Shown one piece after another: positions 1 to 19,965 of a stretch of DNA of 64,000 nucleotides. Origin of the DNA: Candidatus Latescibacterota bacterium (lineage in GTDB: Bacteria; Latescibacterota; UBA2968; UBA8231); NCBI GenBank assembly GCA_965223905.1, contig CBDCXV010000002.1:160001-224000 (forward strand), read 5' to 3'. Made by a program: the position numbers and the translations under genes. Positions within the stretch are counted from its first letter, which is position 1; every line of letters begins with the position of its first letter. The notes beneath the pieces were generated by a model, which ran no database searches, was not told where the DNA came from, and saw only the letters and a program-made list of their open reading frames with translations.

Positions 1-941
1 CGGTAGGCATCGAATACGATCTGCAGGTCGCGGCGCGCGCGCGCCAGGTTCGAGTACGGTGAACGGCCCCGGTCCTCCAGGCAGGCGAGAAAATCCTCCA
101 TCATCCCCCGGTATCCCATCATGTCGCGGAAGCCTGGGAACTCCAGGGCCCGGCGCCGCTGCGAGCGCACCCAGTGGTATATCCCGTTGCTCTCGAACAG
201 CACCCCGCCCTCGCTGCCGGCGATGCGGGAATGCTGAAACACCCCCCCCGTCGGCGACGGCACGTTCCAGGCGTAGCGGATCTCCGCCTTCGGCCCGCCC
301 GGCGCCTCGAGCGCGACGACGGCGTGGCGCTCCGCCTCGCCGCTCTGCCGGCCGGGGAACTCCGCCCCGAGCAGCCGCGGCCGGCCGCATTCGCTTCCGG
401 TGGCCGCGTCGAGCAGGTCGGCTGCGAGGGCGACGAAATGGATGCCCCCCTCCAGCAGCGACCCGTGGGCCGCCCGCCACCCGGAGGCCTTCTGCTCCTT
501 CAGCTTCTTCACCTCGATGCGCTCGATCTCGCCAAGGTCCCCCGACCTGATGTGCTGCTTCAGCTTCAGCAGCGAGGGTTTGTAGTAGTAGTTCTCGGCG
601 ACCATCAGCACCGTCCCGGGATGCCGGGCCGCGGCCGCCTCGATGCGGAGGAGCTGATCCGGCTCGTGGCAGAGCGGTTTCTCGACGAGAACCGCCGCGG
701 CCCCAGCGGCGAGGGCGGCGACCGTCTCGGTCTCGTGCCGCTCCGGCGGCGTCGCGATGACCACCCCGTCGGCGCTGTCGAGAAGCTCCTCGTAGCTCGC
801 GCACACCTCGCCGCCGAACTCCCGCGCGAACTCCTCGGCCCGGGCCCGGGTGCGGCTGTGGAACAGCAGCCCGGCCCGGCCCCGCAGGTTGCCGGCGTGC
901 TTCCTGCCGATGGCGCCGCAGCCGGCGAGGCCGACCCGCAT
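1..941 (-). CDS. Gfo/Idh/MocA family oxidoreductase (3' end runs off the window)
   Basis: Manual translation MRVGLAGCGAIGRKHA...VVIATPPERH...VLVEKP...AENYYY...EGGIHF shows the Rossmann GxGxxG and EKP motifs. The ATG overlaps the upstream TGA at 941. Missing from the ORF track because no stop falls inside the window. Confidence 0.88.
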   Translation of the reverse strand, partial: MRVGLAGCGAIGRKHAGNLRGRAGLLFHSRTRARAEEFAREFGGEVCASYEELLDSADGVVIATPPERHETETVAALAAGAAAVLVEKPLCHEPDQLLRIEAAAARHPGTVLMVAENYYYKPSLLKLKQHIRSGDLGEIERIEVKKLKEQKASGWRAAHGSLLEGGIHFVALAADLLDAATGSECGRPRLLGAEFPGRQSGEAERHAVVALEAPGGPKAEIRYAWNVPSPTGGVFQHSRIAGSEGGVLFESNGIYHWVRSQRRRALEFPGFRDMMGYRGMMEDFLACLEDRGRSPYSNLARARRDLQIVFDAY

Positions 942-2428
942 CACGCCGCGCGCCCCACATCGGCCACGCGCAGGGCGTTGGCGGCGATGGTGAGACTCGG
1001 GTTGACGCCCCCCGAGGCCGGGAAGCAGCTGCCGTCGACGACGTAGAGATTTTCCAGTCCCCAGACGCGGCAGTCGCGGTCGAGGGCTCCGCGCTCCGGG
1101 GAGTCGGCGCAGCGCACCGTGCCGACGGCATGGGAGAAGGTGTCGATCTCGTACATCCGCGTCTTCCACGCCCCGGCCGCCCTCAGCACCCGGCGGGCCT
1201 GGGCCGCGAGGAAATCCCGGCGCTCGAGGTCCGCCTCGCTGTACTGGTGGTCGACGCGGGGGATCTCGACCCCCCAGCTGTCCCTGCGGTTGTCGAGGTT
1301 CACCGCATTGTCGAAGCGCGGCTCGTCCTCGGCTATGCAGAGCAGGTTCTGCATGAAGGGGCCGAACGCCCCGGCGATCCGCTTTAGCCCGAAAGGAGCG
1401 AAGTGGGAGATCACCTCGCTGGACGGGGTGTAGATATCCTGGATGACCCCGGCGGCGGTGCCGTGCCGGACGCGGAAGCGCTCGTAGAACTCGGTGAAGC
1501 AGAGCTGCTTGTGGAAGAGGTTGCCGGGGTTGGTGCGGAACGGGAAGACCCCGGCGACCACGGCGTTGCAGTGCCTCATCAGGCAGCGGCCGATCCACCG
1601 GGCCCCGGGCGAGTCGAGGCGCGACCGCAGCAGCAGGGCCGGTGTCTGCAGGGCTCCGGCGGCGACGAAGAAGCGCTCCCCTTCCAGGACGAGGGTTTTC
1701 GGCTCGCCTGTGACGGCCACCGCGTGCAGGGCTTCGACACGGCCCCCCGAGACCGCCAGGTGCGTCGCCGCCAGGCCGGCGATGATCTCGAGGCCGGCCT
1801 CCTGCCCCAGGCGCAGCGCCGTCGCCGTCATGTCGTTCTTGGCCTCGATCCGGCACGGGAACCCGTCGCAGGTCGAGCAGCGGACGCAGAGCGGCCGGTC
1901 CGGATCGTCGAAGTTTATCGCCATCGGCAGAGGAAACGGTTTGAGGCCGAGCCGTTCCGCGGCCGACCGGATGCGCCGGGCAGGGGGGGCGAGCTCGACC
2001 GGAGCCCGCGGATAGGGAGTGGACCGCCGCGGCTCGCAGGGGTCGGTCCCGGTCTCGCCGTGAACGGCCAGCAGGTTCTCGGCCTCGGCGTAGTACGGTT
2101 CCAACTCGTCGTAGGCGATCGGCCACTTCTCGAAATCGGTTTCCCGCAGGCGCAGGGAGGCTCCCCCGAAAAAGACGGAGTTGCCGCCGACCACCTCGTT
2201 CGGATAGAGCGGTTCGCATTCCCTGGCCCCGTACTGGCGAACCGACACCGGCGACCCGGATCGATACCGCTTCTCGATCAGGATTTGCCGCTGGTTCCAG
2301 TCCCCCTCGTCCCGGTGCGGCCAGCCGCCGCGCTCGACCAGGAGGGTCTTCAGCCCGGCACGGACCAGGCGGTAGGCGGCGCAGGCCCCGCCGAACCCGG
2401 AACCGACGATGACGGCATCGTATTTCAC
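941..2428 (-). CDS. GMC family FAD oxidoreductase
   Basis: DAVIVGSGFGG FAD motif, VVGGNS, CxxCxxC..C, AAGALQTPALLLRS, HAVGT..., VVDGSCFPASGGVNPSLTIAANALR. Confidence 0.93.
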   Translation of the reverse strand: MKYDAVIVGSGFGGACAAYRLVRAGLKTLLVERGGWPHRDEGDWNQRQILIEKRYRSGSPVSVRQYGARECEPLYPNEVVGGNSVFFGGASLRLRETDFEKWPIAYDELEPYYAEAENLLAVHGETGTDPCEPRRSTPYPRAPVELAPPARRIRSAAERLGLKPFPLPMAINFDDPDRPLCVRCSTCDGFPCRIEAKNDMTATALRLGQEAGLEIIAGLAATHLAVSGGRVEALHAVAVTGEPKTLVLEGERFFVAAGALQTPALLLRSRLDSPGARWIGRCLMRHCNAVVAGVFPFRTNPGNLFHKQLCFTEFYERFRVRHGTAAGVIQDIYTPSSEVISHFAPFGLKRIAGAFGPFMQNLLCIAEDEPRFDNAVNLDNRRDSWGVEIPRVDHQYSEADLERRDFLAAQARRVLRAAGAWKTRMYEIDTFSHAVGTVRCADSPERGALDRDCRVWGLENLYVVDGSCFPASGGVNPSLTIAANALRVADVGRAA

Positions 2429-2469
2429 GAATTGTCTCCGCCGTGGAATCAGGCGGAAACGGTAGGGAA

Positions 2470-3282
2470 TTACAAGGCGCGCACCTCGACGACGTAGAGC
2501 ACCGCGAGGGCGGCGACGATCACCAGGGCGAGGTAGTGGAATTTCTCCCGGGTCTGCACGAACTGCTCGATACGCTCGAGATCCCCCTTGAACTTCCCCG
2601 ACATGTTGCGCTGCACGTAGGTCTTGTAGTACTCAACGGAAAAGCGCTCGAGGCCGCCGTTCATGTAGACGAGGAACCCGGCCGAAACCGGGGAGGCAGG
2701 ATCGTTGACGAAATAGAACAGCGGGCTCAAAAGGGCCAGGACCATACCTGAGCGCTGGAATTTCAGCGGCTTGAACCCCTCGAAAGGCGCGTCCTTGTAG
2801 GCGCCCCCGAGGGACACCACCAGCCCGGTGCCGTAGGCAATGAGGACGAACCAGAAGAAGCGCTCGACCGGAACCTCTATCCGGGTAACGGCGAACACGG
2901 CGGCGACGATCACCGCCCCGGCCGCGTACCGGAGGAGATCGCTCTGGACGTGCCGCCCGAAAAAGGTGATGCGGGAGGGGACGAAGTACTTCTCCTGGTC
3001 TTCGGTGCGGGAAAACCCCTTGTAGATCTCGGCCAGGAACCGCTCGATCCCCATGACCAGGAAGAAGAGCTGGAACATCCCGATCCCGGCCAGGCGCTGG
3101 GTGAACGGGGGAAGGGTATACAGCACCAGGAAAATGGCCAGGCTGAACCAGATGCTGCGGGGGAAGGTGCGCGGCTTGAACCCCTCGAAGGGGGAGTCCT
3201 TGAAGGCTCCCCAGAGAGAGGTGTAAAGGCCGGACAGGAGGGTCACGGCCAGGATGGTGGTTAAGGGCAATTGGGGGTACAA
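2470..3282 (-). CDS. Uncharacterised multi-pass membrane protein with internal duplication
   Basis: Hydrophobic helices. Paired motifs GAFKDSPFEGFKPRTFPRS / GAYKDAPFEGFKPLKFQRS and GIERFLAEIYK / GLERFSVEYYK. Confidence 0.8.
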   Translation of the reverse strand: MYPQLPLTTILAVTLLSGLYTSLWGAFKDSPFEGFKPRTFPRSIWFSLAIFLVLYTLPPFTQRLAGIGMFQLFFLVMGIERFLAEIYKGFSRTEDQEKYFVPSRITFFGRHVQSDLLRYAAGAVIVAAVFAVTRIEVPVERFFWFVLIAYGTGLVVSLGGAYKDAPFEGFKPLKFQRSGMVLALLSPLFYFVNDPASPVSAGFLVYMNGGLERFSVEYYKTYVQRNMSGKFKGDLERIEQFVQTREKFHYLALVIVAALAVLYVVEVRAL

Positions 3283-3410
3283 GGTTGGAGGGGCAGATGG
3301 CGCTGGAGTCTACCACAGGGCTGCCGAGGAGGCAAGCGCAACACCGGGTTCCCGGGCGCCGGGGAGGCTGCTCGGATGGAGCTTCCACGGGCGCTGTAAG
3401 CCGATGAGGG

Positions 3411-4097
3411 TTATGACGGCAGCACGAAGGTGAAACCGGCCCAGAAGGCGAGTGTTACCAGCCAAAACACGCAAACGATGCCGCCGGTGCGCAGCCAGCT
3501 GAATCGACAGACCCTTTGAATACCGAGAGTCAGAAGAAAGTTATACCACACCTTGAACGGATTGACGTCCGCAAGGATCACATTCAGGACAGGGTGGGTC
3601 GTCTCTTTCCAAAAGAGATCGAGCCCCATTCTCATCTGCAGAATCTCAGGGGCAAGTTCGCCGTTTTGGGTTCGGATGAAAAGGATGATCGATCCCGTTA
3701 CAACGTGGAGCAGGGTAGCGACGCTTGCGTGCGCAACCACCGACAAGATCGATTTGATGCTCGCCAATCCCTCGAAGATCTGAATAATCAACCAGAGTAG
3801 AAACGCGGAAACGGACCAGGAAAGCAAAGTTGCGAAAAAGGAAGCCGCCGTAGATGCATACCTTACTGCCTGTTCGATCGATGATACGCCAGCTGCCTGG
3901 GAATCCGGAAGAGTACCAGGAACAAGGAACAAGGTCTGCTGAAAAACCGTGGTAGTATACCAGGCCGAAATGGCAGTTACAAAAGCGATTGTGAAATATG
4001 CGCATATCCAGGTCGGCCGTTCGGAGATTTCATCGAATGCGAGGAAAGGCGAGAAAATCACCAGGGCCAGGCGTCGCAGGGAAGGAAGAAAAGACAT
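3411..4097 (-). CDS. Yip1-family membrane protein
   Basis: N-terminal 'IFSP..AFDEI.ERP.W' pattern, about 5 TM segments, late 'NPFKVW...L.LGI' motif. Confidence 0.75.
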   Translation of the reverse strand: MSFLPSLRRLALVIFSPFLAFDEISERPTWICAYFTIAFVTAISAWYTTTVFQQTLFLVPGTLPDSQAAGVSSIEQAVRYASTAASFFATLLSWSVSAFLLWLIIQIFEGLASIKSILSVVAHASVATLLHVVTGSIILFIRTQNGELAPEILQMRMGLDLFWKETTHPVLNVILADVNPFKVWYNFLLTLGIQRVCRFSWLRTGGIVCVFWLVTLAFWAGFTFVLPS

Positions 4098-4145
4098 GGA
4101 TCCGCAGTTCAGGCAATCGGTTTGCGCAAACCGGAGGGGCGAGTC

Positions 4146-4772
4146 TTACCGGGGAGAACGGGCGACTGAAGGCAACGCCGACAGCCCGGACGGACCGCCG
4201 GTGGAATAGCGAGGGATTGATGAGAGAGGACACCGGGACTTGTGATCCTGAACCATGGAATCAATGATTCCTCGGACTTGCCGAAAGGCCTTATAGCCTA
4301 CGTGCTTATGCAACAGGATGCCTTCTTCGTCGATGAGAAACAGTGCCGGGACAGCTGAGGTTCCGAGTTTTTCTCGTAGTTGAAGCTTGGATTCCATCCA
4401 GAGCGGAAAGGAAAAAGCATCACCGGACTGGAAGTTTCGAGGCACAACGGAGCCGTAGGTAGCAACAGCTACTATGGAGAATTTGCCGTCCTGCCCATGC
4501 TGGTGGTGTATTGCGTCCAGGACTTTGAGCTGTTCTTGGCAATAACCGCAACCCAGATCGAGGAACACGGCGATTATCTTCTTGCCGCGAAAGCTGTCGA
4601 GGTCAACGGTCTCTCCCGCAAGATCCGTGAGCTCAAGGCGCGGAAAGGTGTGCCCTGTGAGGATGATGCTTTCGACGCCGTACCGGTTGTGAAACCACAG
4701 GAGCCCGAAAGCTGCGATTCCCAGGATGCCTGACAAAATTGACGTTGCAATGAGTCTGCGGCGACTTCTCAT
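4146..4772 (-). CDS. Membrane-anchored TlpA/ResA-like thioredoxin-fold redoxin (CGYC)
   Basis: N-terminal TM helix, then 'FPRLELTDLAGETVDLDSFRGK..F.DLGCGYC', 'VPALFLIDEEGIL'. Start placed at ATG 4772; the ORF track extends to 4922. Confidence 0.85.
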   Translation of the reverse strand: MRSRRRLIATSILSGILGIAAFGLLWFHNRYGVESIILTGHTFPRLELTDLAGETVDLDSFRGKKIIAVFLDLGCGYCQEQLKVLDAIHHQHGQDGKFSIVAVATYGSVVPRNFQSGDAFSFPLWMESKLQLREKLGTSAVPALFLIDEEGILLHKHVGYKAFRQVRGIIDSMVQDHKSRCPLSSIPRYSTGGPSGLSALPSVARSPR

Positions 4773-4925
4773 AAGTCTCAGTCTCAGCTTGAATCCACTA
4801 TTGTGGAAAGCGTAAATCACGAAGTGCCTCCCGTAAGGATTCACGGGGAATGGTGACCCGAAAAACCATGGAAATTCTGCGCCGCGGAAACATGGCCCCG
4901 GCAGCCAAGTTGATAGTGGCAAGCC

Positions 4926-5369
4926 CTAAACTCCGGGGCGATCCAGGATACTGGAGAACAAGGCTCTCAGGATGGACACCCCTTGCTCTTGCACGAGCGT
5001 AGCTTCTACCACCTGAAAGGAGTCCGTCCCGGCTGCATCGCCCCCTGTCCCGTCGATTTCGATCCGCACTGCAACCGAGGGCTCCCCGTCCGCCAGGCAT
5101 CCACTTACCTTTCCGACCTTCAGGTACCTGACCTCATTTCCCCGGCTCCGGATTTTGAGGTGCCTGCACCTGTGCAAAAGAGCGACCCGGTCCCCAGGAA
5201 CCTTGGTGGTCATTACCCAACCCGTCTCTGTGAGCATGATCTTCCCCTCGACTTCCATCCCCACATCCATGCGCGTCACCGTAAGGGCAATCAGCAGAAG
5301 GAGGAAAACCGCGGCCGCCCCGAGGAGCATGGCACCCGCGCGCCATTCGATTGTTGCCGGGATTCTCAT
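4926..5369 (-). CDS. Small membrane-anchored protein, possible minimal HlyD/MFP-like accessory protein
   Basis: One N-terminal TM, 'VEGKI', beta-rich body, C-terminal 'SILRALF' amphipathic tail. Its start overlaps the ABC exporter stop. Confidence 0.5.
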   Translation of the reverse strand: MRIPATIEWRAGAMLLGAAAVFLLLLIALTVTRMDVGMEVEGKIMLTETGWVMTTKVPGDRVALLHRCRHLKIRSRGNEVRYLKVGKVSGCLADGEPSVAVRIEIDGTGGDAAGTDSFQVVEATLVQEQGVSILRALFSSILDRPGV

Positions 5370-7180
5370 CCTGCCTTCTTCAAGTCCTGCTCGTATATGG
5401 TGGTGAAATGCCCCCCCATTCGAAGAAGCTCCTGTAACGTACCCTCCTCAACGATCCGGCCCCCCACCAGCACGAGAATTCGATCTGCGAACAACACGGT
5501 GGAAAGACGGTGGGCGACCAGTAGCGTCGTACGGTCCTGCGCGGCGCGGCGCAACGAGTCCCCAACGAGATTTTCCGCCCGTGGATCAAGTGAGGCGGTG
5601 CCCTCGTCCAGCACGAGAAGCCTGGGATCCCGGATCACGGCGCGGGCTAACGCAACCCGCTGCTTCTGCCCGGCGGAAAGTTGAACGCCGTCGCCACCAA
5701 GCCGGGTCTCCAAGCGGGCTGGAAACCCGTTGATGAACTCCATGCAATTGGTGGATTCCGCCGCAGCCAGAACCTCCTCCTTGGTAGCCCCCGGCTTGCC
5801 GTAGGCGATATTCTCCCAAATGGTCCCGGGAAACAACCGGAGGTTCTGTTCGACAAGCGCGACGTTCTTGCGAAGCGCGCGTACGTCATATGATAGAAAA
5901 TCGTTCCCATCAAGCAGCATTCGACCCGAAATCGGCTCGTACAGCCGTAACAGGAGGTGAACCAAGGTGGTTTTCCCGGACCCGCTGGGCCCCACTACGA
6001 CAGATATTTTCCCAGGTTCAAGGACGAGGTTTACTCCCTTCAATACCGGAAGCTGGGGAATGTACCCAAAATGCAAATCCTCAATGACAACTTTCCCAAT
6101 CTTTGCTGGGCTCCGAAAGGTTCCGCCTCGTCCTTTTTCTTCCGGAACATCCAGAACCCCAAAAACCCGTTTCAAGACTCCTACTCCTCGCTTGAAGTTC
6201 AGGTAAATTCCAGTGAGCTGCCCGATCGGTCCGTATATATAGGAAACCAGCATATTGAAGGCCATGAATTCACCGAGGGTCAGCTCGTCGCGCATGATTG
6301 CGTAGGTCCCGTACCACAGCAGGAGAATTCCGCCGAGAGCATAGAGAAAAACCTGCACCAGATGGCCGCAGGTCATGGTGACATTTCTGGATAGATCGGC
6401 GTCGAATTCGGAGTGCAAGGCGGACACCAGCCGACGTGCTTCCAATTTTTCCCGGTCGAACGCCCTGACTACGTGCGCCGATTCCAGGGACTCCAACCGG
6501 ACAGCATTCGTGACGCCCTTTCGCTCCTGCACCTGTTCACTCAGCACCTGGACCTTGCGCCCAAACAAAAAATTGACGGCAACAATCCCCGGTAAAACAA
6601 CAAGGACGGCCAAGCCCAATTCCGGGTTAATGGTGAACATGATGCAGGTCGCGGCGACTAAAACGGTGATGCTGCTGAGTCCTTCGATATAGGCTCCGGC
6701 CATCATGGACCCAAGCTGCCTGACATCGTCGCTGATTCTTGTGGCAATGTACCCGCTGGCGTGGGATTTCAGATAGGAGAGTGGTACCGAATGAATCTTT
6801 TGAAACAATTTCAGTTCTATATCGAAAAACACCCGTCTGGTAAATATCAGCAGCAAATAGTGCTGTAAAAAACTCAAAACAATTCCCAGAAGGATAATGG
6901 ACGCTAGCACAGCGCAGACCAAATGGAGAATATCCTCCTGATGGTTCACGATAATATGGTCGATTATGTAAATGGAGAACAAGGGCATGGGAAGGGCCAA
7001 TACAGTGGAGAAGACCATGCATGCGGCGGCTTCGATTACCCGAATCCAATAGGGCTGAAAAAAGAAAAGCAGCCGCAAAAAAAGGAATCGTCCCACACCC
7101 GGTGACGGGTTGGAGGTAAAAACCTGGCGGAGGGTAAAGCCCCTTTGTCGCGCTAGCTCAAGTTGTCGAAAGAAGCCCAT
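5366..7180 (-). CDS. ABC exporter, fused TMD + NBD, no C39 peptidase domain
   Basis: 6-TM domain, Walker A GPSGSGKT, signature LSAGQKQR, Walker B LLVLDE, VAHRLST. Confidence 0.95.
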   Translation of the reverse strand: MGFFRQLELARQRGFTLRQVFTSNPSPGVGRFLFLRLLFFFQPYWIRVIEAAACMVFSTVLALPMPLFSIYIIDHIIVNHQEDILHLVCAVLASIILLGIVLSFLQHYLLLIFTRRVFFDIELKLFQKIHSVPLSYLKSHASGYIATRISDDVRQLGSMMAGAYIEGLSSITVLVAATCIMFTINPELGLAVLVVLPGIVAVNFLFGRKVQVLSEQVQERKGVTNAVRLESLESAHVVRAFDREKLEARRLVSALHSEFDADLSRNVTMTCGHLVQVFLYALGGILLLWYGTYAIMRDELTLGEFMAFNMLVSYIYGPIGQLTGIYLNFKRGVGVLKRVFGVLDVPEEKGRGGTFRSPAKIGKVVIEDLHFGYIPQLPVLKGVNLVLEPGKISVVVGPSGSGKTTLVHLLLRLYEPISGRMLLDGNDFLSYDVRALRKNVALVEQNLRLFPGTIWENIAYGKPGATKEEVLAAAESTNCMEFINGFPARLETRLGGDGVQLSAGQKQRVALARAVIRDPRLLVLDEGTASLDPRAENLVGDSLRRAAQDRTTLLVAHRLSTVLFADRILVLVGGRIVEEGTLQELLRMGGHFTTIYEQDLKKAG

Positions 7181-7288
7181 CTTGCATCAGCTGCATCCAT
7201 CAGGTGGGGGAAAGCCGCGAAAGCGTGAAGACAGGACGGATTGGCGGAGGAAGCGGAAGCGACGGTTTGGGTATTTGTGGACAGGACA

Positions 7289-8068
7289 CTATACCGGAGA
7301 CGGCCCGGCATTCAGCCAGGAGAGGTTCCCGCCTTGAGCGGGGTGACGCACGAGCTCCAGGAAAACTTTCTCAAGGCCGGAAACTCTCCCTCCGGCGGTA
7401 GGATAACGGTCCCGTTTGGCCGTGTGAATGATCTCTCCCTCATGCATTATGGCAACCTCCGAACAAAGCTTTTCAACCAGTTCCAGATTATGAGAGGTGA
7501 GAAAAATGGTGATTCCCCGATCCTGCATGGAGAGTAGGACCTCCTGTATGACTATTGCGGAGGCCGGATCAATTCCCTCGAAAGGTTCGTCCATAATCAA
7601 AACGCGGGGAGACCGGATGAATAAGGAGGCCAGGTAAAGCTTTTTCTTCATCCCGGCGGAATATCTATAAATGAACCCGTGGCGCGCTTCTGCCAAACAC
7701 ATCAATTCCAATAATTCTTCACACCTGGCGAAGATCACCCGGTCAGGGATGGAGAAAACTTTGCCGATAAATACGAGGTACTCCTCTCCAGTCAATTGTT
7801 CGTAGAGGCCAAGGGTGTCTGTCATCACACCGAGTTGGCGTTTAATTTCGACCCCATGGAGGTGAAAGTTCTTACCAAGGATCTTGACAATACCTGACGT
7901 GGGTTGCAGCAACCCGGAAAGCATCCCAACGGCTGTTGTCTTTCCCGCCCCGTTGGTTCCAAGGAGACCGAAAAAGGCTCCTTCGTTTATGGAAAGGGAA
8001 AGATTCTTCACAGCAGTGACAGGCCCGAATTCCTTGATCAGGTTTTGTGCGGATATGGCTATGTTCAT
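7289..8068 (-). CDS. ABC-2 type transporter ATP-binding subunit
   Basis: GTNGAGKT, YSAGMKKK, LIMDEPFEGIDP, TSHNL. Confidence 0.95.
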   Translation of the reverse strand: MNIAISAQNLIKEFGPVTAVKNLSLSINEGAFFGLLGTNGAGKTTAVGMLSGLLQPTSGIVKILGKNFHLHGVEIKRQLGVMTDTLGLYEQLTGEEYLVFIGKVFSIPDRVIFARCEELLELMCLAEARHGFIYRYSAGMKKKLYLASLFIRSPRVLIMDEPFEGIDPASAIVIQEVLLSMQDRGITIFLTSHNLELVEKLCSEVAIMHEGEIIHTAKRDRYPTAGGRVSGLEKVFLELVRHPAQGGNLSWLNAGPSPV

Positions 8069-8081
8069 TTGTGGGCCTTCC

Positions 8082-9707
8082 CTATTTGAAAAGCACGCCC
8101 AGCAGTTTTTCTTGTCTGGATTTCATAAGAGCTGATGATTTTCTGATGGCAGGAAAGTAGGTACCCAGACTCACTAGAAAAACTAGGAAAAAGCTGATAA
8201 TCGTCAATTGTGGGGAACGTAAGACAATATGGAAAACATAAACGTTGATCCCAATAAAAATTACCGCGGGCAACCAGGCAATTAAAATCAAACAAACACT
8301 TTGGGTCGACCAGGTTCTCTGACTCATCGAACCAAAGGATTTGAGTTTCTTTGGAAAAAGAACGGATGAAAAATTTCCAGTCGCGGCAACGTAAATGGGA
8401 ACGCAAACGGTCAATGGAATCAATGCAAAGGCCAGTGTCAGGTCTGTTTCCTTCCCTTGCCAGGTCCAGAAAAGGATTCCTGGAAGATACATCCAGTTAT
8501 TGAAAATCTGAAGACATACCAGCGCCAAATTTTTACTGATAAGCACATCTCGTAAATGAATCGGTAAAAGAAAGTGGTGAACAACACCTTTAGACTCTTT
8601 ATTGAACAGAGAGTGCATGAAACCACTCATTCCCCCGAAATAGAAGACCAGGAACGCCCAATAGTACTCAAACCGTGCCGAAAGGATTACTACTGACATG
8701 CACCAGGCAATAACTACTTGAAAAACGGCCATTACCCGGAACTGATTCCATCTACACAGATATAATAGCTCGTGGGTGAAAAAAGGGATATACTTCCTGG
8801 GAAGAAAGCGGTCCGCAATGCCGCAAATTTTAAAATAAATATTGCCTGGTAGCCCCTGACTTTCTCTACTAACCGAGGGTTCGTGGAACATCAGACTCAT
8901 GGTGCTTCTGCGTGACACGAGATACCCCAATGAGAGGTATCCCATAAGGCCAAGGAAACAGACTATCGAATCAAAAATTCTTCCCCGACTCAAAAAATAG
9001 AAAATATCAGCGAGCATGCCCGGTGGTGTAAATTTGAGGTAGGAAGATAAACGAAGTTTTCCTAATTGAGTTATCATTTCTTGCATGTACTCATCCTTCA
9101 AAAGAAGCAAAGCCAACATCAGATTAACCATGAGGAAAGCTAAGCTTGTAAGTATGACCAAACCGTATTTGGATATCCACCAACTAAGGGAAATATCTAT
9201 CCACGAACGCAACGCCTGAATCCAGCTTACCATCAGCACAGCAAACGCAATCATCGAAAGACCGCAGATAATTCCGGTTGTGATTGATTTCAACAATCCA
9301 CATGCCATCGCCGAAGAGACCAAAACAGGTGCAAATATAATCAGCCATCGGTCAGAAAGGGTTCTAACCACTCCGGCAGCGTAAACCTGTTTGTAGGTCC
9401 ATGGATACTTGACGGTTTCGCGAAGATCCTTACAAACAGAAGTACTTATGATACTCTTGAGCCCTAGAACCACCCATACCATCGACAAACCGGCAAACAA
9501 TGCGTGAAGCAATTCCCGAACCATCAAGCCCCCGTCACCCATAGCATGAAGCAACGCGTGGTGTATGCCTGCGGAGGCCCAGAGCGAGAGGACCAGGATC
9601 GCTATCTCCCCCGATATTTTAACGGCATAACTTCCAGGGCCCGATTTTGATTCAGTTCGCTCGCCCTTTAAATGGAGCCATGTCATGTACCACCAAACTT
9701 TTAGCAT
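8082..9707 (-). CDS. ABC-2 type permease / immunity-like multi-pass membrane protein
   Basis: About 12 hydrophobic segments, 'TPPG', 'LLPI..RDVLISKN'. AT-rich and directly upstream of the ABC-2 ATPase. Confidence 0.8.
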   Translation of the reverse strand: MLKVWWYMTWLHLKGERTESKSGPGSYAVKISGEIAILVLSLWASAGIHHALLHAMGDGGLMVRELLHALFAGLSMVWVVLGLKSIISTSVCKDLRETVKYPWTYKQVYAAGVVRTLSDRWLIIFAPVLVSSAMACGLLKSITTGIICGLSMIAFAVLMVSWIQALRSWIDISLSWWISKYGLVILTSLAFLMVNLMLALLLLKDEYMQEMITQLGKLRLSSYLKFTPPGMLADIFYFLSRGRIFDSIVCFLGLMGYLSLGYLVSRRSTMSLMFHEPSVSRESQGLPGNIYFKICGIADRFLPRKYIPFFTHELLYLCRWNQFRVMAVFQVVIAWCMSVVILSARFEYYWAFLVFYFGGMSGFMHSLFNKESKGVVHHFLLPIHLRDVLISKNLALVCLQIFNNWMYLPGILFWTWQGKETDLTLAFALIPLTVCVPIYVAATGNFSSVLFPKKLKSFGSMSQRTWSTQSVCLILIAWLPAVIFIGINVYVFHIVLRSPQLTIISFFLVFLVSLGTYFPAIRKSSALMKSRQEKLLGVLFK

Positions 9708-9884
9708 TTTTATCTGAATTTCCGATGCGAGGGGGTACGGACCAAACTCAGACTCTTTTTCTCATTTTTGAGTTACACCCCATGCTTACCCTGGACTCTC
9801 TTCCATTCTCCCAGACAGTTACATGTTTCCTTCATATTCGCTACTAATAAAAGTGAGGGAGGCCATCTCCTTCAGATTAAATCT

Positions 9885-9906
9885 CGAGGCTGAAATTCAA
9901 GCCTCG
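9885..9906 (-). terminator. Hairpin just downstream of the peptide gene (terminator, attenuator or stabiliser)
   Basis: cgaggct-gaaattca-agcctcg, a 7-bp stem followed on the minus strand by agatttaat (weak U-tract). Confidence 0.5.
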
Positions 9907-9916
9907 TTCGTTTTCA

Positions 9917-10141
9917 TCAACCAAACCAGCCGTAGCTGACAGCGGTGATAAAGCCACAGTGCAATGCTGCCGAAATCGCCAGTGCCCCGCCGAGCGGCCC
10001 AGTAAACAGGGAAGAAGCTAATGCGGCAGCGGTTGCTAAACCGCAAACAAAGAACTTCAAACCTGTCAACTCATCGTGATAGGCATCGACTTTGCCCGAT
10101 GCATCGTAGTCCCTATATGAAGGTTTCTTCAAAGGTTTCAT
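9917..10141 (-). CDS. Putative bacteriocin/RiPP precursor peptide (74 aa)
   Basis: Charged leader MKPLKKPSYRDYDASGKVDAY, then a hydrophobic Ala/Gly-rich core with two Cys around a TGPLGG turn, ending YGWFG. SD-like AAAGGG upstream. Heads the export cluster. Confidence 0.75.
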   Translation of the reverse strand: MKPLKKPSYRDYDASGKVDAYHDELTGLKFFVCGLATAAALASSLFTGPLGGALAISAALHCGFITAVSYGWFG

Positions 10142-10297
10142 AGGTCTAGCCCTTTCAAGGTTATGAATTTGGTAAAGGAGTGGCCTCCCTCAACAAGGGC
10201 CTGAAATTCGGGTTCGTTCCGCGAATTTTCATCTTGTCCTCGATCACCCTGCGCCCCCAATCTGACGCCCCTCTCAACTAGTTTCATCTTAATTCAT

Positions 10298-11842
10298 TCA
10301 GCTCATCAGGACCACCCTTCGTGCTTTAAATTTATCAGCCAACTCAACCAAGCCTTTTTGTTCAAAAATCATTCCTATTCTCGTCGACATTTCACTTTCC
10401 AGCACGTGGCAACCGACATTGTTTGCCATTTCCACGGCCCTTTCAAAATAGGACAATCCCTGGAACACCTCGTTTTGCCCGACCAGGATGATACCAATCC
10501 TCTCGTACGCCCTTATCTCCTCGAAAATATTCCGGGTTTTTCGAGCCGCTTCAACGATATTTTTCGTGATATCCATGGCGCGCTCCCCATCCCCTTCCAT
10601 CGAATAAACTTCGGCCAGGGAATTTCCACTCCGAAATTTACCATTGGCATACCCGATCGCAGTCGCCACCGCACGGGCCTTCTCCAACGAAATTTTCCCT
10701 GCCTGGTAATCCCCCATGGCAACTTGTTGCATGCTTAAACGGACGAGAATATCCACTTCTCCTTTCTTGTATCCCAGTTCCCTAATTAAGGCCAATCCCT
10801 TTTCAATCCACAACAGGCCAGATGTTGGATCGTCTGCACCTGATATCTCACCTGATAAAACTAAAATTTTCGCCTTGTGATGGTCATCCCCCAACTTGGT
10901 ATCCGTTTCCAAAACCTTGGCCAACAGCTCCGCTGTCTCGTTCAACCGATTATTCATTAAATGTAATGTTGCATAATTCGTCAGAATGCGGACATGATCC
11001 TGGGACATCTGCCGATTTGCGACCAATCCCATGTTTTCACGGAATATCTTTTCCGCCTCCTGAATTTGTCCCCGGGACAGATAAACTATACCCATGGTAC
11101 AACGCACGCCTACGAGCCCCCTTCCTGCCTGGATCGTATCGAACACCGTAAGGGCCTTCTCGCAGCAGGACATCGCCTTTTCGTATTCTCCGATCCTGAG
11201 TTGGAGAAGTCCTTTTTGATGGATGGCCATTGCAAGCAAAGACCCAACACCATTTTCTTTCGCCGTTTTGATAGCCCGGTCAAATACCTCTTCCGAGTTG
11301 TCTGTCTCGCCCAGATCTGAGTAAACCTGGCCCAGGTTGATCCCAGACGCAATTTCGAACGGAATCTCCTTTTGCTTTTCCGACAGGGCCCTGGCTGTTT
11401 CGAATCCATTGGCGGCTTCTCTCAGATCCGAAACCATCATTAACGCCGCTGCATGCGCTGAAACGGCGCACATACTCTCCATGCTTTTTTGAGAAGCAAT
11501 ATAGTGCCCGGCCGCATCGAGAAATTTCCGTTCCTTGAACGCCTTTTCCCCTTGGTTATAATGATGAATTGCCCGACTCCCTCCCAGCCCGGCCTGGTCT
11601 CCCATTTCCCCTACCAGGATACTTGCTGACGGCTTGAGTAGCCTCTGTCCATCATCAGGCAGATATACCAAATCGAAACCGGCAAATGATCCCGACCAAA
11701 TAGGCCCGGGTTTTTTACCGGTTAGTCTTCTCCTTTCAGACCTGTGATTTTTCATTTCTGTCAAGTCAGGGTACCAACCAACCGATCCGTATTTTGACCA
11801 CCCCATCCACTCCGGCCCCACTCCTGTAGTGTGACTCCGCAC
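10298..11842 (-). CDS. Tetratricopeptide-repeat protein (MalT/RRNPP-like 40-aa repeats); start uncertain
   Basis: Repeated 'NLGQVYSDLGE..', 'GLLQLRIGEYEKA..CEKAL', 'TMGIVYLSRGQ..EA', 'SLAEVYSMEGD..RA'. Confidence 0.85.
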   Translation of the reverse strand: MRSHTTGVGPEWMGWSKYGSVGWYPDLTEMKNHRSERRRLTGKKPGPIWSGSFAGFDLVYLPDDGQRLLKPSASILVGEMGDQAGLGGSRAIHHYNQGEKAFKERKFLDAAGHYIASQKSMESMCAVSAHAAALMMVSDLREAANGFETARALSEKQKEIPFEIASGINLGQVYSDLGETDNSEEVFDRAIKTAKENGVGSLLAMAIHQKGLLQLRIGEYEKAMSCCEKALTVFDTIQAGRGLVGVRCTMGIVYLSRGQIQEAEKIFRENMGLVANRQMSQDHVRILTNYATLHLMNNRLNETAELLAKVLETDTKLGDDHHKAKILVLSGEISGADDPTSGLLWIEKGLALIRELGYKKGEVDILVRLSMQQVAMGDYQAGKISLEKARAVATAIGYANGKFRSGNSLAEVYSMEGDGERAMDITKNIVEAARKTRNIFEEIRAYERIGIILVGQNEVFQGLSYFERAVEMANNVGCHVLESEMSTRIGMIFEQKGLVELADKFKARRVVLMS

Positions 11843-12249
11843 TCCCCGGGGTTTCTTCCCATTGGGTGTACGCTGGATTTATTCTTGATCAGACGCAAAA
11901 TCTGGGCCAGCAACCTCGATGGCCCAACGGACGCCTCTAGCCAGGGTGACGCTGTGCCCCTTCTCACACAAATCCCTGTAACGACCCTCGGTCCACTCCC
12001 TCTGGCAAAATGGTCCGCATTCGCTTCGCCACTGGCCCGACGCGTTACTATTCCTACGGCCGTGCCTGATCCATACCAAGTTTGCAGGAAAAAAATTACC
12101 GCCTTGGTGCATGGGCCTGCCCCCCGGGGATGCTCCCTGGGTGGTCCAGCACACGGTTCTGTGTCCTGGAGCACACACTCCGGTGCCATCGGCGGCAAGG
12201 GGAGCCTACGGATCCCATTCCACTCCCTCTCGAACTGCGGCGGGGCCGC

Positions 12250-12740
12250 GGGTATTTTCATCGTCGACGACGTCTTCGGCCCCGATCTGCTGGAACGCCT
12301 GGAGACCGCCTCCTGGAACGTCTGGAAGAAGGTGCGGTCCGGAGAGGTGGACGAACTTCCGCTGGCAGCCGGCCCTGATCGACGACCCCTGCCTCTGGCT
12401 GATTCCCTGGAGCCAGAGCCGCTACCGCACCGACGAGGAGCAGGACGCCCTCGTCTCCGACAGGAACAGGGACCTCCCCGACATGGAGAACGTTGTCCTC
12501 AAGCGGGGGCAGACCCTGTTCTGGGACGGTAACCCCATCCACCGCGGCAAGCTGCCCCCGGGGGTGAACCAGCGGCTCGTGCTGACAGGCGGGCTGTGCA
12601 GGTACGACCCGGACGAGCCCGAGCTGGAGCCGGACAAGCGCTTCCAGTGGCGGGTCGCTGAGAACATCGGACCGGCCCTGCCGGATCGGGTGCGCCTTCG
12701 GCGGCGGCCAGGGTTCGCACCCTGGGGCCACGGTGAATAG
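12250..12740 (+). pseudogene. Phytanoyl-CoA dioxygenase (PhyH) family remnant with internal deletion/frameshift
   Basis: 'GIFIVDDVFGPDLLERLE' in one frame, 'DDPCLWLIPWS...VLKRGQTLFWDGNPIHRG...RLVL' in another; the HxD segment is missing. Confidence 0.65.
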
Positions 12741-13118
12741 GTCAGACTGTCCCGCGCACTCTGTGCGGCAACGGTGTCCAGGCCCGGCCTTCCCGGCTTC
12801 CGGGAAGCCGAAGCAAGTCCCTCCCCAGGGACCTAAAGGACACCACAATTTTTGAAAAACATCCTCGGGACCGACCGATCCCATGGACGGGCGCACCCCG
12901 GCTTGGCGGGCAGCGCATCCCGAAGGCCAGGGCTATGTACTGACTGTTCCGATCGGTGTTGTGAATGGGTATGGACGGAGCCTTTCCGCCCCGAACCGGC
13001 TCTGCCCAACACGTAGAACCAAAATGGCCGGGTTAGACAGCAGTCTGGCTGTGAAAGTCTTCGGTTTTGTTGTAAGTTGAACACGTTTCCATCAGGGCCA
13101 ACTCACGAGGGAATCACC

Positions 13119-16100
13119 ATGGATAAACATCGAAGGATCATTTCTCAGCTTGGGCAGCTTACGCAAAAAATCGCCCATCCTACGCGGCTGGTGATCGGCG
13201 GTCTCGTGGCACTGGTATCCGGCGCCGGTGCGGAACCGCTGCTCGAAGGGCGGGTGCGGCTGTTCGCCGACCTGGGCAGCTCGCTGGGCGCCGCCACCGA
13301 TGAGAGCGGCTATTTCGCGCTGCCCCTGAACGCGCTGCGCCAGGCCGCCCCCCGGCCGGCGCACATGCAGCTGGGGCAGAACTACCCCAACCCGTTCAAT
13401 CCCTCGACGATCATCCCGTATCAGCTGCCCGCCCCGACTCGGGTGCGGCTGGAGGTGTTCAACATTCTGGGGCAGCGGGTTGCCACCCTGGTCGACGGGA
13501 AACAGGCGGCCGGTTTTCACACCGCGACATGGAACGCCACAGATGCTTCAGGGCGGGGTGTGGCAACGGGGGTGTACCTGTACCGGCTGCTGGCCGACAG
13601 GGAGCGCTTGACGCGGTCGATGGTTCTGCTGGACGGACCGGTGAGCCCGGCGGGAATAGCTCCCTCCGGTGGCGGGATCTCAGCCGGTCCGCAGGGCACC
13701 GACGGTGCAGCGGATCCATCAGGTAGGACTGCGGGAGCGATAGCATCAGGGTCGTGGGTCCCCCCCGGCGGCCAAGGGCAGGTCTACGGGTTGACGGTCA
13801 CTGGCCCGGGACTCATCCCCTATGTCGACCCGGCCTTCCGGGTGGGGGACGGTCCGGTCGAAATCCGGGTGGAAACGCTGGCCAGCTTGCCTCGCGGAAA
13901 GATGGCCGCAGACGGCCTGCTGGGAGACGTCGACGGCAACGGCCAAGTCGACCTCTCCGACGCCCTGCTGGTCGCCTCGTACAGCGAGGACCCCTCCCTT
14001 TCCATTCCCAACGGGGATATCACCCTGGGGGACGTCAACCGGGACGGTCAGGTCGATCTGGCCGACGCCCGCCTCATCGTGGCGTACCATGCGGACCCGT
14101 CCGACCTGTCGCTACCGGAAGGGATCGGCGCCCCGGTGGGGGCAGATGACGAAGGACCGCGGCTCTACTGGACGGACGCGGGCAGCGACAAGATCCAGCG
14201 GTCCCGCCTCGATGGCTCCGGGGTCGAGGACGTCGTCGACAGCGGCCTGGTCTATCCGCGCGGCCTGGCGGTGGACCTGGCGGCCTCCAAGCTGTACTGG
14301 ACCGACTACGGCACCGACAAGATCCAGCGCTCCAACCTCGACGGAACCGAGGTGGAAGACCTGGTGACCGAGGGCCTGAAGGAGCCGTTCGGTATCGCCC
14401 TCGATCTGGGCGGCGGCAAGATCTACTGGAGCGACTGGGGCACCGACAAGATCCAGCGATCCAACCTCGACGGCTCCGAAATCGAAGACCTCGTCGCCAC
14501 CGGTCTGAACGAGCCCTACGGCCTCGCCCTCGACCTGGGGGAGGGCAAGATCTACTGGACCGACTGGGGCAGCGACCGGATTCAGCGCGCCAATCTCGAC
14601 GGCTCACAAGTCGAGGACCTGGTCACCGGGCTCAACCAGCCCCGGGGGATCGCCCTCGATCTGGAAGACGGCCGCATGTACTGGCCCGACTGGGGCACGG
14701 ACAAGATCCAGCGCGCGAATCTCGACGGCTCCGAGGTGGAAGACTTGGTTACCGAGGGCCTGCGGACCTCCCAGGCGATCGCCCTCGATCTGGGCAGCGG
14801 CAAGATGTACTGGACCGACTACGGCACCGACAAGATCCAGCGGGCCAACCTCGACGGCAGCCAGGTCGAGGATCTGATCACCTCCGGTCTGAAGGAGCCG
14901 TACGGCTTGACCCTGGGCGCCGGCCTGCCGGCGCAGATCCTGAAAGTAAAGGGCGCCTCGGCGACCCTGAACCTGGCCGGCCGCTTCCGCGACCCGGAGG
15001 GGGGCGCCCTGACCCTCGCCGCCGCCTCCAGCGACGAGGCGGTCGCCGCCGCGAGTCTGGCCGACTCGGTGCTGACCATCGCGCCGGTGACCCCCGGCCG
15101 GGTGACGGTCGCGGTGACCGCCCGCGACGAGGGGGGCCGGGCTGCCACCCTGCCGGTGGCCGTGACCGTGTACCCGGCCAACCGCCCCCCGGTGGCCAAA
15201 GCCCTGGCCGACCGCAAGATCCGCATCGGCAGCCCGGACCGGGTCGAGCTGACCAGCGCCTTCACCGACCCGGACGAAACAGACGTGCTGACCTACACGG
15301 CCGCGTCGAGCAACGAGGCGGTGGCCACCGCAGCCATCGAGGGGACCGGCCTGCGCATCACCCCCAAGAGCATCGGGCAGACCGGGATCTCAGTGACCGC
15401 CCGCGACCCGAAGGAACTGGAGGCGTCACTGAGCTTCAGGGTCACCGTCGAGCCCAAGCCGCCCCCCAGGCCGCCCCGGACCCCGCCCGGCTCGGGCAGT
15501 GACGATGGTGATGGTAATGGTGATGACGGTGGTGGTCCGGTAACCCCCCCGCCCCCGACGCCTCCACCTCCACCGCCGACGCCTCCGCCTACCCCACCTC
15601 CGCCGGGTCAGAACAACGCCCCCACCTTCGACGAGAGGCCGAGCGCCACCCGCAGCGTCGCCGAAAACACCGAGGCGGGTGAAGACATCGGCAACCCGGT
15701 GACCGCGACGGATAGCGATGACGACAGGCTGACCTACAGCCTGGAGGGGACGGATGCGGGGAGTTTCACCCTCGCCTCCACCAGCGGCCAGTTGCGCACC
15801 CGCTCGGGCGCCACCTACGACTACGAGACAAAGCCCCGCTATTCTGTGTCGGTGAAAGCCGAGGACGGACATGGCGGCATTGCCGCCATTGACGTGACCA
15901 TCCACGTGGCCGACGTGAACGAACCGCCCGGGAGGCCGTCTGCCCCGTGGGTTGAGCCGGCCTCCTCCACCAGCCTGACCGTGAGCTGGACCGAGCCGGC
16001 CAACACCGGCCCCGATGTCCACGACTACGACGTGCAGTACCGCAAGAGCGGCAGCTTCCTCCCCTGGCCGCACGACGGCCCCGGTACCACTACCACGATC

Positions 16101-18344: not shown

Positions 18345-18790
18345 TTCCGGCGGTGAGAGAGAGCGGCGCTGCGAAGGGCACGGCGGGCGGGAGCCGGAAG
18401 CAGGAGTGCCCGGGCCGCGTCGTTCACCGATCCCACGGCTTTCGCGTTGACCCCCGCCCACGATAAGTCCCCCGTCCTTCCCGGTGAAGGCTGACGAACG
18501 GGGTGCCGTCCGAACGCATCCCGGCGCCATCCCTGACAAGCCTGCGACCATCGTCCTTTAAGTAAAGAGCACCACCGAGAGCGAGTGAGCCGCCTGACCC
18601 TCAGCCCACTCGTGGCCATCGTCCTGGCTGTCGGTGCCCCGGAAGGTGCTGCGCTCACAGCGATTTGAGCTCTGCGAGGAACTTGGCGAGTCTGCCCGTC
18701 AACCGGCCGACGTTCGAGCAGGACGGACAACTCGTCCGGTGGCCATAAGGGGGGTTTCAGTGGAGCTGTTGCTGTGTTCGGCCATGCCCC

Positions 18791-19139
18791 TCAGAACTCT
18801 TCCCCTCCCACCGTCATCAACGCTTCGGCCACCTGCCCGAAGGGCCGTCCCCCGGCGACCAGGTCGACGGCGAACGGCTGCCGCCGGCAGGGCCGGTCCG
18901 GTTCGATCGACAGCTCGCAGCTGACCTCGCAGCGGGGACCTGCCTGCAGGCTCGCCGACTCTCCCCGCCATCCTTTAGGGCCGACGAGGTCGACCTCCAG
19001 CTCTGCCCTCTGCGGCAGGGGATTGCGCACGGTCACCCTCACCCGAGCCGGTCCGGGCTCGGCAAGGTGCACGCGGTAGGGCCAGATCCAGCCTCCCCAG
19101 CTGTCGAGATCGAAGTGGATCTCCTCCTCGCCGAGGGGC
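18791..19139 (-). pseudogene. Duplicated 3' fragment of the MBL-fold hydrolase gene at 31939-33780
   Basis: Colinear 349-bp near-copy of 31939-32287 (PLGEEEIHFDLDSWGGWIWPYRVHL...EALMTVGGEEF). Confidence 0.92.
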
Positions 19140-19169
19140 GCTGCCTGCCCGCTGATCACGTCGCATTGC

Positions 19170-19960: not shown

Positions 19961-19965
19961 GCCGC

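Follow-up and report, generated by a model that had tools for sequence, protein, structure and literature searches.

A stretch of 64,000 nt from the genome of a Latescibacterota bacterium (positions 160001-224000 of contig C2, here called the window) carries an island of eight genes, one of which encodes a peptide of 74 amino acids (aa) alongside two ATP-binding cassette (ABC) transport systems. We suggest that this island is probably a mobile cassette for the production, export and self-protection of a new family of bacteriocin-like ribosomal peptides of the Latescibacterota. The peptide gene family, its architecture and its linkage to the transport genes are well supported. The source assembly comprises 7.9 Mb in 11 contigs and is 93.6% complete.

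All eight open reading frames (ORFs) of the island lie on the minus strand (Table 1), and the guanine plus cytosine (GC) content, taken in 500-nt windows across 3501-12000, is 0.43-0.61 as against 0.62-0.72 in the flanks. This agrees with the first-pass annotation of the window, which had noted eight co-oriented genes on a stretch of lower GC.

The peptide gene and its family

The 74-aa peptide begins with a polar leader of approximately residues 1-25 (grand average of hydropathy, GRAVY, -1.30), and the remaining 49 residues are hydrophobic (GRAVY +1.24). The core holds two hydrophobic stretches, 28-46 and 50-68, with the motif TGPLGG in between and one cysteine in each (Cys33 and Cys62), just as the first-pass annotation had described it. 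Compared with its copy in L004, a relative that is ~96% identical, the ORF shows 7 synonymous and 6 non-synonymous changes; its ratio of non-synonymous to synonymous substitution rates (dN/dS) of 0.26 falls inside the range found for the neighbouring island genes in the same comparison (0.17-0.68). Four metagenome assemblies from four studies cover the island at ~97-99.7% identity. None of them has an indel inside the 74-aa ORF, and indels are found beside it at 9826 (91 nt downstream), 10168 and 10216/10218 (27-77 nt upstream). The 74-aa ORF is a real gene under purifying selection. There was no RNA among the 22 sequencing runs listed for the locus, and the four runs compared are DNA-type contigs.

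A word-seeded search returned one homologue of the peptide, P0001, at 92% identity, and the L004 copy is likewise 92% identical. Scanning 1.8 billion representatives exhaustively with phmmer brought one more homologue, P0017 (77 aa, 51% identity), along with FG-GAP repeat proteins that also match the leader. Small ORFs of the same build, one to four per locus, are located upstream of the homologue of the island's 541-aa permease in every readable Latescibacterota locus. In an alignment of 18 of these peptides M1, L4, K6, Y12 and Y21 are invariant, and the profile made from it retrieved another 57 clusters (66-98 aa), all of them devoid of Pfam domains; the two for which a name is listed are called 'hypothetical protein'. 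The peptide has no Pfam or NCBIfam family and none of the 18 family members gave a meaningful NCBIfam match, which is in line with the earlier suggestion of a new system.

The family set contains 70 unique sequences, with a mean pairwise identity of 0.68 in the leader (up to the invariant Tyr21) and 0.32 in the core that follows. Among tandem paralogues within single loci the leader identity is 0.76-0.84 and the core identity 0.27-0.35, the four paralogues of locus L018 giving 0.84 and 0.27, and tandem arrays of three to four peptide genes are present in genomes G159, G166 and G167. This combination of leader conservation, core diversification and tandem duplication is the signature of precursor peptides of bacteriocins and of ribosomally synthesised and post-translationally modified peptides. 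The family is built from a hydrophilic conserved leader of ~21-25 residues, followed by a helix-turn-helix core of ~45-50 residues that is both hydrophobic and hypervariable.

A kinship of the leader with FG-GAP repeats was considered and rejected. The whole-protein E values, which go down to 9e-14, sum 4-16 repeats, and we discounted the matches because such repeats inflate the scores; the similarity is weaker in other subfamilies and we take it as chance or convergence. The part of the leader that looks like a single FG-GAP repeat, Asp-rich loop included, is residues 5-25 of the peptide (window 10066-10129), and the matches of long FG-GAP proteins span residues 5-52.

Paired cysteines in the core

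The number of cysteines is even in 64 of the 70 unique precursors. A large subfamily of 62 sequences is characterised by four core cysteines, C-x6/8-C ... C-x6/10-C, with a central Pro/Gly turn between the two halves. Within it the outer cysteines are both present in 45 sequences and both missing in 15; the first stands alone in two and the last in none. One sequence, P0076, is without both inner cysteines. The spacing of the 66-aa subtype, C-x6-C ... C-x6-C, is also the cysteine spacing of glycocins.

The four-cysteine members would fit two nested disulfides across a helical hairpin, and the window peptide would fit a single staple, Cys33-Cys62. The proposal of a disulfide-stapled hairpin in the first-pass annotation is in keeping with this family pattern. 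As the cysteines are lost in pairs, disulfides are suggested, and disulfides in turn point to an extracytoplasmic location.

Linkage of the peptide genes to the transport genes

The survey of the phylum covered 168 Latescibacterota genomes from 49 genera, and tblastn gave nine related loci outside the genus of the window. Homologues of the 541-aa permease occur in 14 of the 168 genomes (6 of the 49 genera), the peptide occurs in 14 as well, and 13 genomes hold both. Where both genes are readable the peptide gene stands directly upstream of the permease gene (8/8 loci); the comparable small ORF that the first-pass annotation had looked to homologous clusters for is thus present in them.

At the nine related loci the 12-transmembrane (12-TM) protein, which is the permease homologue, and a DrrA-like ATPase are found in nine, the ABCB exporter in eight (the locus without it stops at a contig end), the 147-aa protein and the Yip1 protein in six each, the tetratricopeptide repeat (TPR) protein in five and the redoxin in two. 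The upstream side can be read in eight of the nine loci, as the ninth, L016, stops at a contig end. TPR homologues stand upstream of the peptide genes in the five loci that have them and are missing from three of the eight with a readable upstream side. The peptide is tied to a common set made up of the 12-TM protein, the DrrA-like ATPase and the ABCB exporter without C39, which the TPR, 147-aa and Yip1 proteins usually join.

Genome G164 (locus L022, G164:C1:3454000-3473000) has the pumps, the mini-adaptor, the Yip1 protein and a subtilase fusion described below, with no peptide gene and no TPR gene; upstream of its permease gene are other genes, including a 315-aa ORF. Genome G089 gave a weak peptide-like match and has no permease.

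Several further genes were seen around the related clusters. In genus g18 (L018, L020, L021 and L029) a glycosyltransferase of family GT4 and a BtrH_N/DUF4872 protein, from a family with a papain-like fold, are encoded upstream of the TPR gene in three genomes, and in G159 the GT4 gene upstream of the cluster is degraded to fragments. A CPBP/Rce1-like protein comes after Yip1 in L019 (3019-3765, minus strand).

The island as a variable site

Positions 1-3237 and 12244-12697 of the window are flanks that it has in common with G104, a genome of the same genus. Between the same flanks G104 carries a different cassette of ~5 kb, likewise of lower GC (locus L028, G104:C3:3831500-3838500, 994-5332), which encodes an HlyD protein of 401 aa, an ABCB exporter of 579 aa, a Gly-rich protein of 125 aa and a CPBP/Rce1-like protein of 288 aa. 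Its exporter is 32% identical to the ABCB exporter of the window, and the G104 stretch appears to be another type of module for a secreted peptide occupying a shared hot spot. The two different cassettes between the same flanks indicate a variable site with exchangeable export cassettes. In the relative L004 both island and flanks are the same, with 95.8% identity across 12.6 kb. The evidence for mobility is the patchy spread over 6 of 49 genera, the GC below that of the flanks and the different cassette in G104. We found no direct or inverted repeat pair at the island borders, no tRNA in window 1-20000 and no Rfam family in window 2500-13500.

The 125-aa ORF of G104 was tried as a precursor of the present family, as its start looks leader-like by eye. 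It scored -2.4 bits against the leader profile, where the best chance score in the window's genome is 9.2 bits, and was rejected.

Transport, redox and accessory proteins of the island

Table 1. Features of the island, with positions in the window.
Feature	Position	Strand	Basis and remarks
Variable island	3238..12243		Borders from comparison with same-genus genome G104 and GC profile
Yip1-domain membrane protein, 228 aa (YknW-like)	3411..4097	-	PF04893, 44.3 bits
Membrane-anchored thioredoxin-fold protein (ResA/TlpA-like)	4146..4772	-	AhpC-TSA and Redoxin; most likely start given, ORF as listed extends to 4922
Predicted minimal membrane-fusion protein, 147 aa	4926..5369	-	N-terminal TM helix and beta-barrel domain; start overlaps exporter stop by 4 nt
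ABCB-type half-transporter, 604 aa	5366..7180	-	ABC_membrane 50-318, ABC_tran 380-529
ABC ATPase, 259 aa, DrrA/lantibiotic-protection type	7289..8068	-	PF00005
Orphan polytopic membrane protein, 541 aa	8082..9707	-	~10-12 hydrophobic stretches
Palindromic hairpin	9885..9906	-	11 nt after peptide stop; terminator-like site listed on + strand
Precursor peptide, 74 aa	9917..10141	-	ORF, homologues, family alignment, dN/dS
TPR protein, 514 aa as listed	10298..11842	-	Pfam TPR_12, TPR_8, TPR_MalT

The 541-aa protein and the ATPase that follows it had been annotated as an ABC-2 permease with its ATPase. The ATPase is confirmed, but Pfam gives no backing for the permease label: the 541-aa protein has no family there at E<=0.01 and none in NCBIfam, and a match to ABC2_membrane_5 (E 0.011) is reached by only 2 of 10 homologues. 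A search of 5.8 billion clusters returned the 541-aa protein itself alone, and homologues at 22-27% identity are found in 13 other genomes of the phylum. Atlas leads point to 12TM_1, ABC_tran_2 and ABC_export clusters at 0.96-0.98. No His, Asp, Glu, Ser or Cys is invariant in an alignment of 10 sequences, which makes an enzymatic role unlikely, and we presume the protein to be the membrane part of an ABC pump with the product of the following gene. The 259-aa ATPase itself matches TIGR01188 (198.8 bits) and TIGR03740 (143.7 bits), both under their cut-offs, the DrrA subfamily being closest, and its homologues (38-52% identical) come after the permease homologue in all nine related loci.

The fused ABC exporter reported by the first-pass annotation has the expected domains (Table 1). 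The best NCBIfam matches of this 604-aa half-transporter are MsbA-related and HlyB, all under cut-off, and its relatives in the PDB are ABCB1, Sav1866, MsbA and BmrA. Homologues at the related loci are 38-56% identical. As the transmembrane domain begins at approximately residue 50, there is no room for a C39 domain. We presume this half-transporter to be the peptide exporter.

The 147-aa protein has no Pfam or NCBIfam match, and Foldseek gave no match in the PDB at E<=0.001. Its language-model lead in the atlas is to short HlyD/LcnD_C clusters at 0.92. A structure modelled from a 7-sequence alignment (predicted local distance difference test, pLDDT, 66) has a TM helix followed by a beta domain, and VIA-align of this model against 48,161 chains gave BesA (Z 9.0), MacA (8.1) and AcrA (7.6), followed by ZneB, EmrA, MexA and CusB. 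Periplasmic adaptors make up 11 of the best 20 rows, all aligned on residues 34-129. The structural scan backs the earlier call of a mini-HlyD-like protein at the level of the fold, and the model indicates a membrane-fusion adaptor reduced to its beta-barrel domain.

The CxxC redoxin of the first-pass annotation stands as a domain, with AhpC-TSA and Redoxin matches and the motif CGYC, but its listed start probably needs moving. Met51 is the most likely start, since the homologues have 181-183 aa and one assembly carries a compensating +1/-1 indel pair at 4810/4861, upstream of Met51. Counted from Met51, a TM stretch covers residues 7-25 and the CGYC is located at 75. The match to the ResA model NF002854 is 55 bits, with a cut-off of 170. 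The Yip1 and TPR calls were both sustained by Pfam, and the Yip1 protein further matches NF052650 (YknW_fam) at 60.3 bits, below the cut-off of 110.

In the TPR protein an N-terminal LPDD motif is conserved, with L32, P33, D34, D35 and P42 invariant in the alignment of homologues. The true start is most likely Met30 at 11755, giving a protein of 485 aa. It is cytoplasmic, having no hydrophobic stretch or TM segment, and Pfam detects no helix-turn-helix (HTH) domain. There is a weak match, 25.0 bits with a cut-off of 26.5, to RNPP_C, the C-terminal domain of the RRNPP peptide-sensing TPR regulators, most of which also have an HTH.

The hairpin beside the peptide gene folds at -15.3 kcal/mol, with a z of only -1.1 and thus no better than shuffles. 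On weak evidence, it could serve as a partial terminator or as a stabiliser.

A subtilase fusion and an acyl-carrier gene

Beyond the exporter, the related loci encode a protein of 648-675 aa in which an N-terminal Peptidase_S8 domain is fused to a C-terminal DUF1611 (TIGR04066-like) domain. The fusion gene is located downstream and on the same strand in eight of the nine loci (L015, L016, L018, L019, where it is truncated, L020, L021, L022 and L023). It scores 157 bits with QhpE (cut-off 165) and 99-139 bits with TIGR04066 (cut-off 200), models described as a leader-cleaving subtilase and as a 'peptide maturation system protein'. All four copies checked carry the Asp and His motifs, and three of them also the Ser motif; none has a signal sequence, which suggests that the enzyme is cytoplasmic. 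A PP-binding (acyl-carrier) gene comes after the fusion in three of the eight loci (L015, L016 and L023), in L015 followed by a GT28-like gene, and in genus g18 an HlyD protein and two MacB-type permeases are encoded after the fusion. For the PP-binding protein beside the fusion TIGR04069 is not among the matches at E<=0.001.

The genome of the window has a single homologue of the fusion, at contig C10:911302-913245, which is 59% identical to the L015 copy and is found in DNA of native GC. At this locus (L032, C10:902000-921900, 3395-12450) the fusion gene adjoins an acyl-carrier gene and an extracytoplasmic function (ECF) sigma factor gene, and these are convergent with an operon for Yip1, HlyD, two MacB proteins and an ABC ATPase. 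Together, the island and the C10 locus equal what genus g18 holds in one place, and by analogy with the related loci we suggest that the C10 fusion would act on the window peptide. We recognised no precursor-like small ORF in the 533-nt gap before the C10 subtilase gene. Among the scanned proteins of the island, of L015, L016, L019, L021 and L023 and of the C10 locus, a set that does not include every ORF, there was no radical SAM domain. The first-pass annotation had deduced a non-standard maturation route from the missing enzymes; the gap within the island is real, but the subtilase fusion at the related loci and on C10 calls for that conclusion to be revised.

Some observations at these loci stand by themselves. 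A DDE transposase fragment lies alongside the C10 locus. In L016 (1084-2436, minus strand) a PP-binding domain is fused to the core of a transglutaminase-like cysteine protease, and the gene adjoining the fusion in the same locus matches an 'UshA-like (seleno)protein' model. At least 14 of the fusion matches listed, mostly from a subgroup at 30-42% identity, have exactly one in-frame TGA and may point to selenocysteine-containing variants.

Comparison with known systems

The eight island proteins contain no radical SAM, lanthionine synthetase, YcaO, glycosyltransferase, C39 or SpoIIM domain in Pfam or NCBIfam, so that the earlier list of missing maturation genes is upheld for the island. SpoIIM (PF01944) was not found in the whole genome, at its completeness of 93.6%, by a search that was positive in 6 of 14 control genomes. 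On its gene content the island appears to be none of a circular bacteriocin, glycocin, lanthipeptide or sactipeptide system. In the literature we found no such system named and no Latescibacterota peptide natural product characterised.

The machinery is most similar to the CLI_3235/SacP23 type (TIGR04065-TIGR04069). SacP23 is a Cys-rich bacteriocin of Paenibacillus polymyxa whose cluster, in the passages cited, comprises an ECF sigma factor, an ABC transporter, a TIGR04066 protein, an acyl-carrier protein (ACP)-related protein, a subtilase and a radical SAM maturase (PMC10731318). As there, we find a Cys-bearing leader-core precursor and an ABC transporter, and the subtilase, TIGR04066-like, acyl-carrier and ECF sigma counterparts are located at C10. 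Unlike that type, no radical SAM maturase (TIGR04068) was found among the ORFs scanned, the protease is fused to the TIGR04066-like domain, scores under the family cut-offs and belongs to a module outside the island, and the precursor is unrelated and strongly hydrophobic, none of 18 family members matching TIGR04065 at E<=1.

With glycocins (sublancin 168, glycocin F and thermoglycocin) the system would share a helix-loop-helix layout with nested disulfides, which the cysteine spacing and the coupled losses fit, and it has in common with them a thioredoxin-like protein in the cluster; in the cited part of PMC12457901 glycocin clusters are described with a glycosyltransferase, a C39 transporter and thioredoxin-like thiol-disulfide proteins. 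The island differs in lacking both a glycosyltransferase and a C39 peptidase-ABC transporter, and the leader is not of the double-glycine type. The core resembles a hydrophobic TM hairpin, and the window peptide has only one Cys pair. Circular (AS-48 type) and leaderless (aureocin A53 type) bacteriocins are, like the present peptides, hydrophobic and helical with 50-70 residues. Yip1 proteins and multi-gene accessory ABC transporters recur in clusters of both types, with a role left unexplained in the passages concerned (PMC8659200, PMC11580447), and SpoIIM/DUF95 is there part of the typical circular bacteriocin cluster and was used as a selection criterion (PMC8659200). By contrast, SpoIIM/DUF95 is missing here and the cysteines are paired, and the long conserved leader shows that the peptide is not leaderless. 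The YknWXYZ proteins of Bacillus protect against the SDP peptide toxin according to the cited part of PMC4887032, and as in that system a Yip1-family protein, a membrane-fusion protein and an ABC pump are encoded together, here beside a putative peptide toxin. The pump of the island is an ABCB half-transporter rather than a MacB/FtsX protein and the adaptor is a beta-barrel only; a YknWXYZ-like full operon, with Yip1, HlyD, two MacB proteins and an ATPase, is present at the C10 locus.

The island also differs from systems with double-glycine leaders, both bacteriocins and microcins, in having no C39 domain and no conserved GG in the leader, and from lanthipeptides, sactipeptides and azol(in)e peptides in having no LanB/C/M, radical SAM or YcaO enzyme. 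NisT-type lantibiotic export combines an ABC exporter of ~600 aa without a peptidase domain, a leader-bearing precursor and a separate leader subtilase. Unlike this arrangement, the present system has no lanthionine synthetase, and the subtilase of the related loci is without a signal sequence and has an extra domain. On this comparison, the system would be a new form within the ribosomal peptides that bear a leader and have ABC export and immunity genes of their own, closest to CLI_3235/SacP23 in machinery and closest to glycocins in product topology.

Proposed mechanism and alternative explanations

In the mechanism that we propose, the leader would serve as a recognition handle, possibly bound by the TPR protein, the exporter or both. 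The QhpE-like subtilase fused to the TIGR04066-like domain, encoded on C10 in this genome and working with an acyl-carrier protein, would cut the leader in the cytoplasm, and the ABCB exporter, the mini-adaptor and the Yip1 protein would carry the peptide out. Outside, the Cys33-Cys62 staple across the hairpin might be closed either by the membrane-anchored thioredoxin-fold protein with its CGYC motif or by the cell's general Dsb system, and the four-cysteine relatives would form two nested staples. The 12-TM/ATPase pump would remove the peptide from the producer's own membrane and so give immunity, and the product would kill or inhibit competitors via their membranes. Export, removal of the leader by a subtilase in trans, disulfide stapling, immunity through the 12-TM pump and antimicrobial action are all inferred. 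Further, we speculate that the fusion and the acyl-carrier protein might form a new leader-dependent maturation machine that cuts the leader and at once transfers a group carried by the ACP to the peptide thus exposed; lipidated or otherwise capped, disulfide-stapled membrane hairpins would result, and the islands would be exchangeable cargo-plus-pump modules that use a resident machine encoded elsewhere. We regard this extension as improbable.

Several points weigh against the proposed cassette. Its antimicrobial function is deduced from gene context only. The fusion/ACP pair is encoded outside this island, and 89 of the 168 Latescibacterota genomes carry the fusion, many of them more than once, so that most copies must serve something else and the link to the window peptide is one of analogy; in the sister genome G103 the match to the fusion is split in two, over residues 6-242 and 265-645. 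No family is detectable for the 541-aa protein, and to call it an immunity pump is guesswork. The 147-aa adaptor is too short to span the periplasm, and no outer-membrane factor is encoded within the island. The redoxin is missing from seven of the nine related loci, among them the genus with four cysteines, and is no constant partner of the peptide, and the dipeptide in its CxxC motif varies (CGYC here, CHHC and CSFC in homologues). As to the cysteines, L018_8626 retains just the two N-terminal core residues, P0038 has a single one, P0077 has three, and two basal sequences carry at most one. Four sequences depart from the pattern, and the coupled losses may go back to as few as two or three independent events.

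Another explanation is that the small proteins are no exported toxins: they would stay in the membrane as partners or regulators of the ABC pump encoded next to them, or give rise to a signal that the TPR protein senses, and the cassette would serve transport or signalling. The two TM-length hydrophobic stretches of the peptide, the constant position of its gene directly before the 12-TM/ATPase pair, the weak RNPP_C match of the TPR protein and the lack of a protease or modifying enzyme within the island would all suit such a role. We nevertheless find it unlikely: tandem arrays with leaders at 0.76-0.84 and cores at 0.27-0.35 identity are typical of diversifying secreted products and not of a stoichiometric subunit, even Cys numbers and losses in pairs argue for disulfides, a second ABC protein of the exporter type is found at eight of the nine related loci and an adaptor at six, and the TPR protein is without HTH and missing from three of the eight readable loci.

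That the island here is an incomplete remnant without production, or a 'cheater' cassette, in which the peptide is made and not matured and the pumps mainly resist the peptides of relatives, is distinctly unlikely. None of the eight genes is disrupted, purifying selection acts on all of them (dN/dS 0.17-0.68), they are conserved in the four further assemblies, and one intact subtilase-DUF1611 gene with its catalytic motifs is available in trans, even though the island stops at the Yip1 gene where eight of the nine related loci go on with the fusion, and G164, which keeps the pumps without peptide and TPR genes, demonstrates that pump-only versions exist. Head-to-tail cyclisation, which the first-pass annotation had offered beside the disulfide staple, would make the peptide a circular bacteriocin, and this agrees with the hydrophobic helical core of ~49 residues, the aromatic-rich C-terminus, the large multi-TM protein with its ATPase and the Yip1 and accessory ABC genes, which are frequent in circular bacteriocin clusters in the cited part of PMC8659200. 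The absence of SpoIIM/DUF95 from the island and the failure to find it in the genome, a leader that is strongly conserved next to a junction that is not, and an outer Cys pair that in the four-Cys relatives already ties both ends of the core make cyclisation very improbable, and we do not retain the proposal.

Taken as a production, export and self-protection cassette, the island provides a defined precursor family from an uncultured phylum, with a recognisable leader, 70 unique sequences and no Pfam or NCBIfam name, as well as a gene set that is conserved and a disulfide topology that can be put to the test. It also gives a second context, free of radical SAM, for the TIGR04066/ACP-related proteins, and an ABCB exporter set with a one-domain adaptor and a Yip1 protein, a protein family whose role in bacteriocin clusters is unexplained in the cited passages of PMC11580447 and PMC8659200. 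The peptides are short enough for synthesis, and activity and structure can therefore be tested without culturing the organism.

Sequences beside the island

Just right of the island, a 96-nt stretch at window 12870-12966 has at least 8 matches in the G104 genome at 82% identity and is a dispersed short repeat. It is followed at window 13077-18344 (plus strand) by a gene for a 1755-aa protein with FlgD-Ig, dockerin, six LDL-receptor class B repeats, cadherin/Big_9, fn3 and a C-terminal PPDK_N (ATP-grasp-like) domain, the YWTD-repeat part of which is found many times in the G104 genome.

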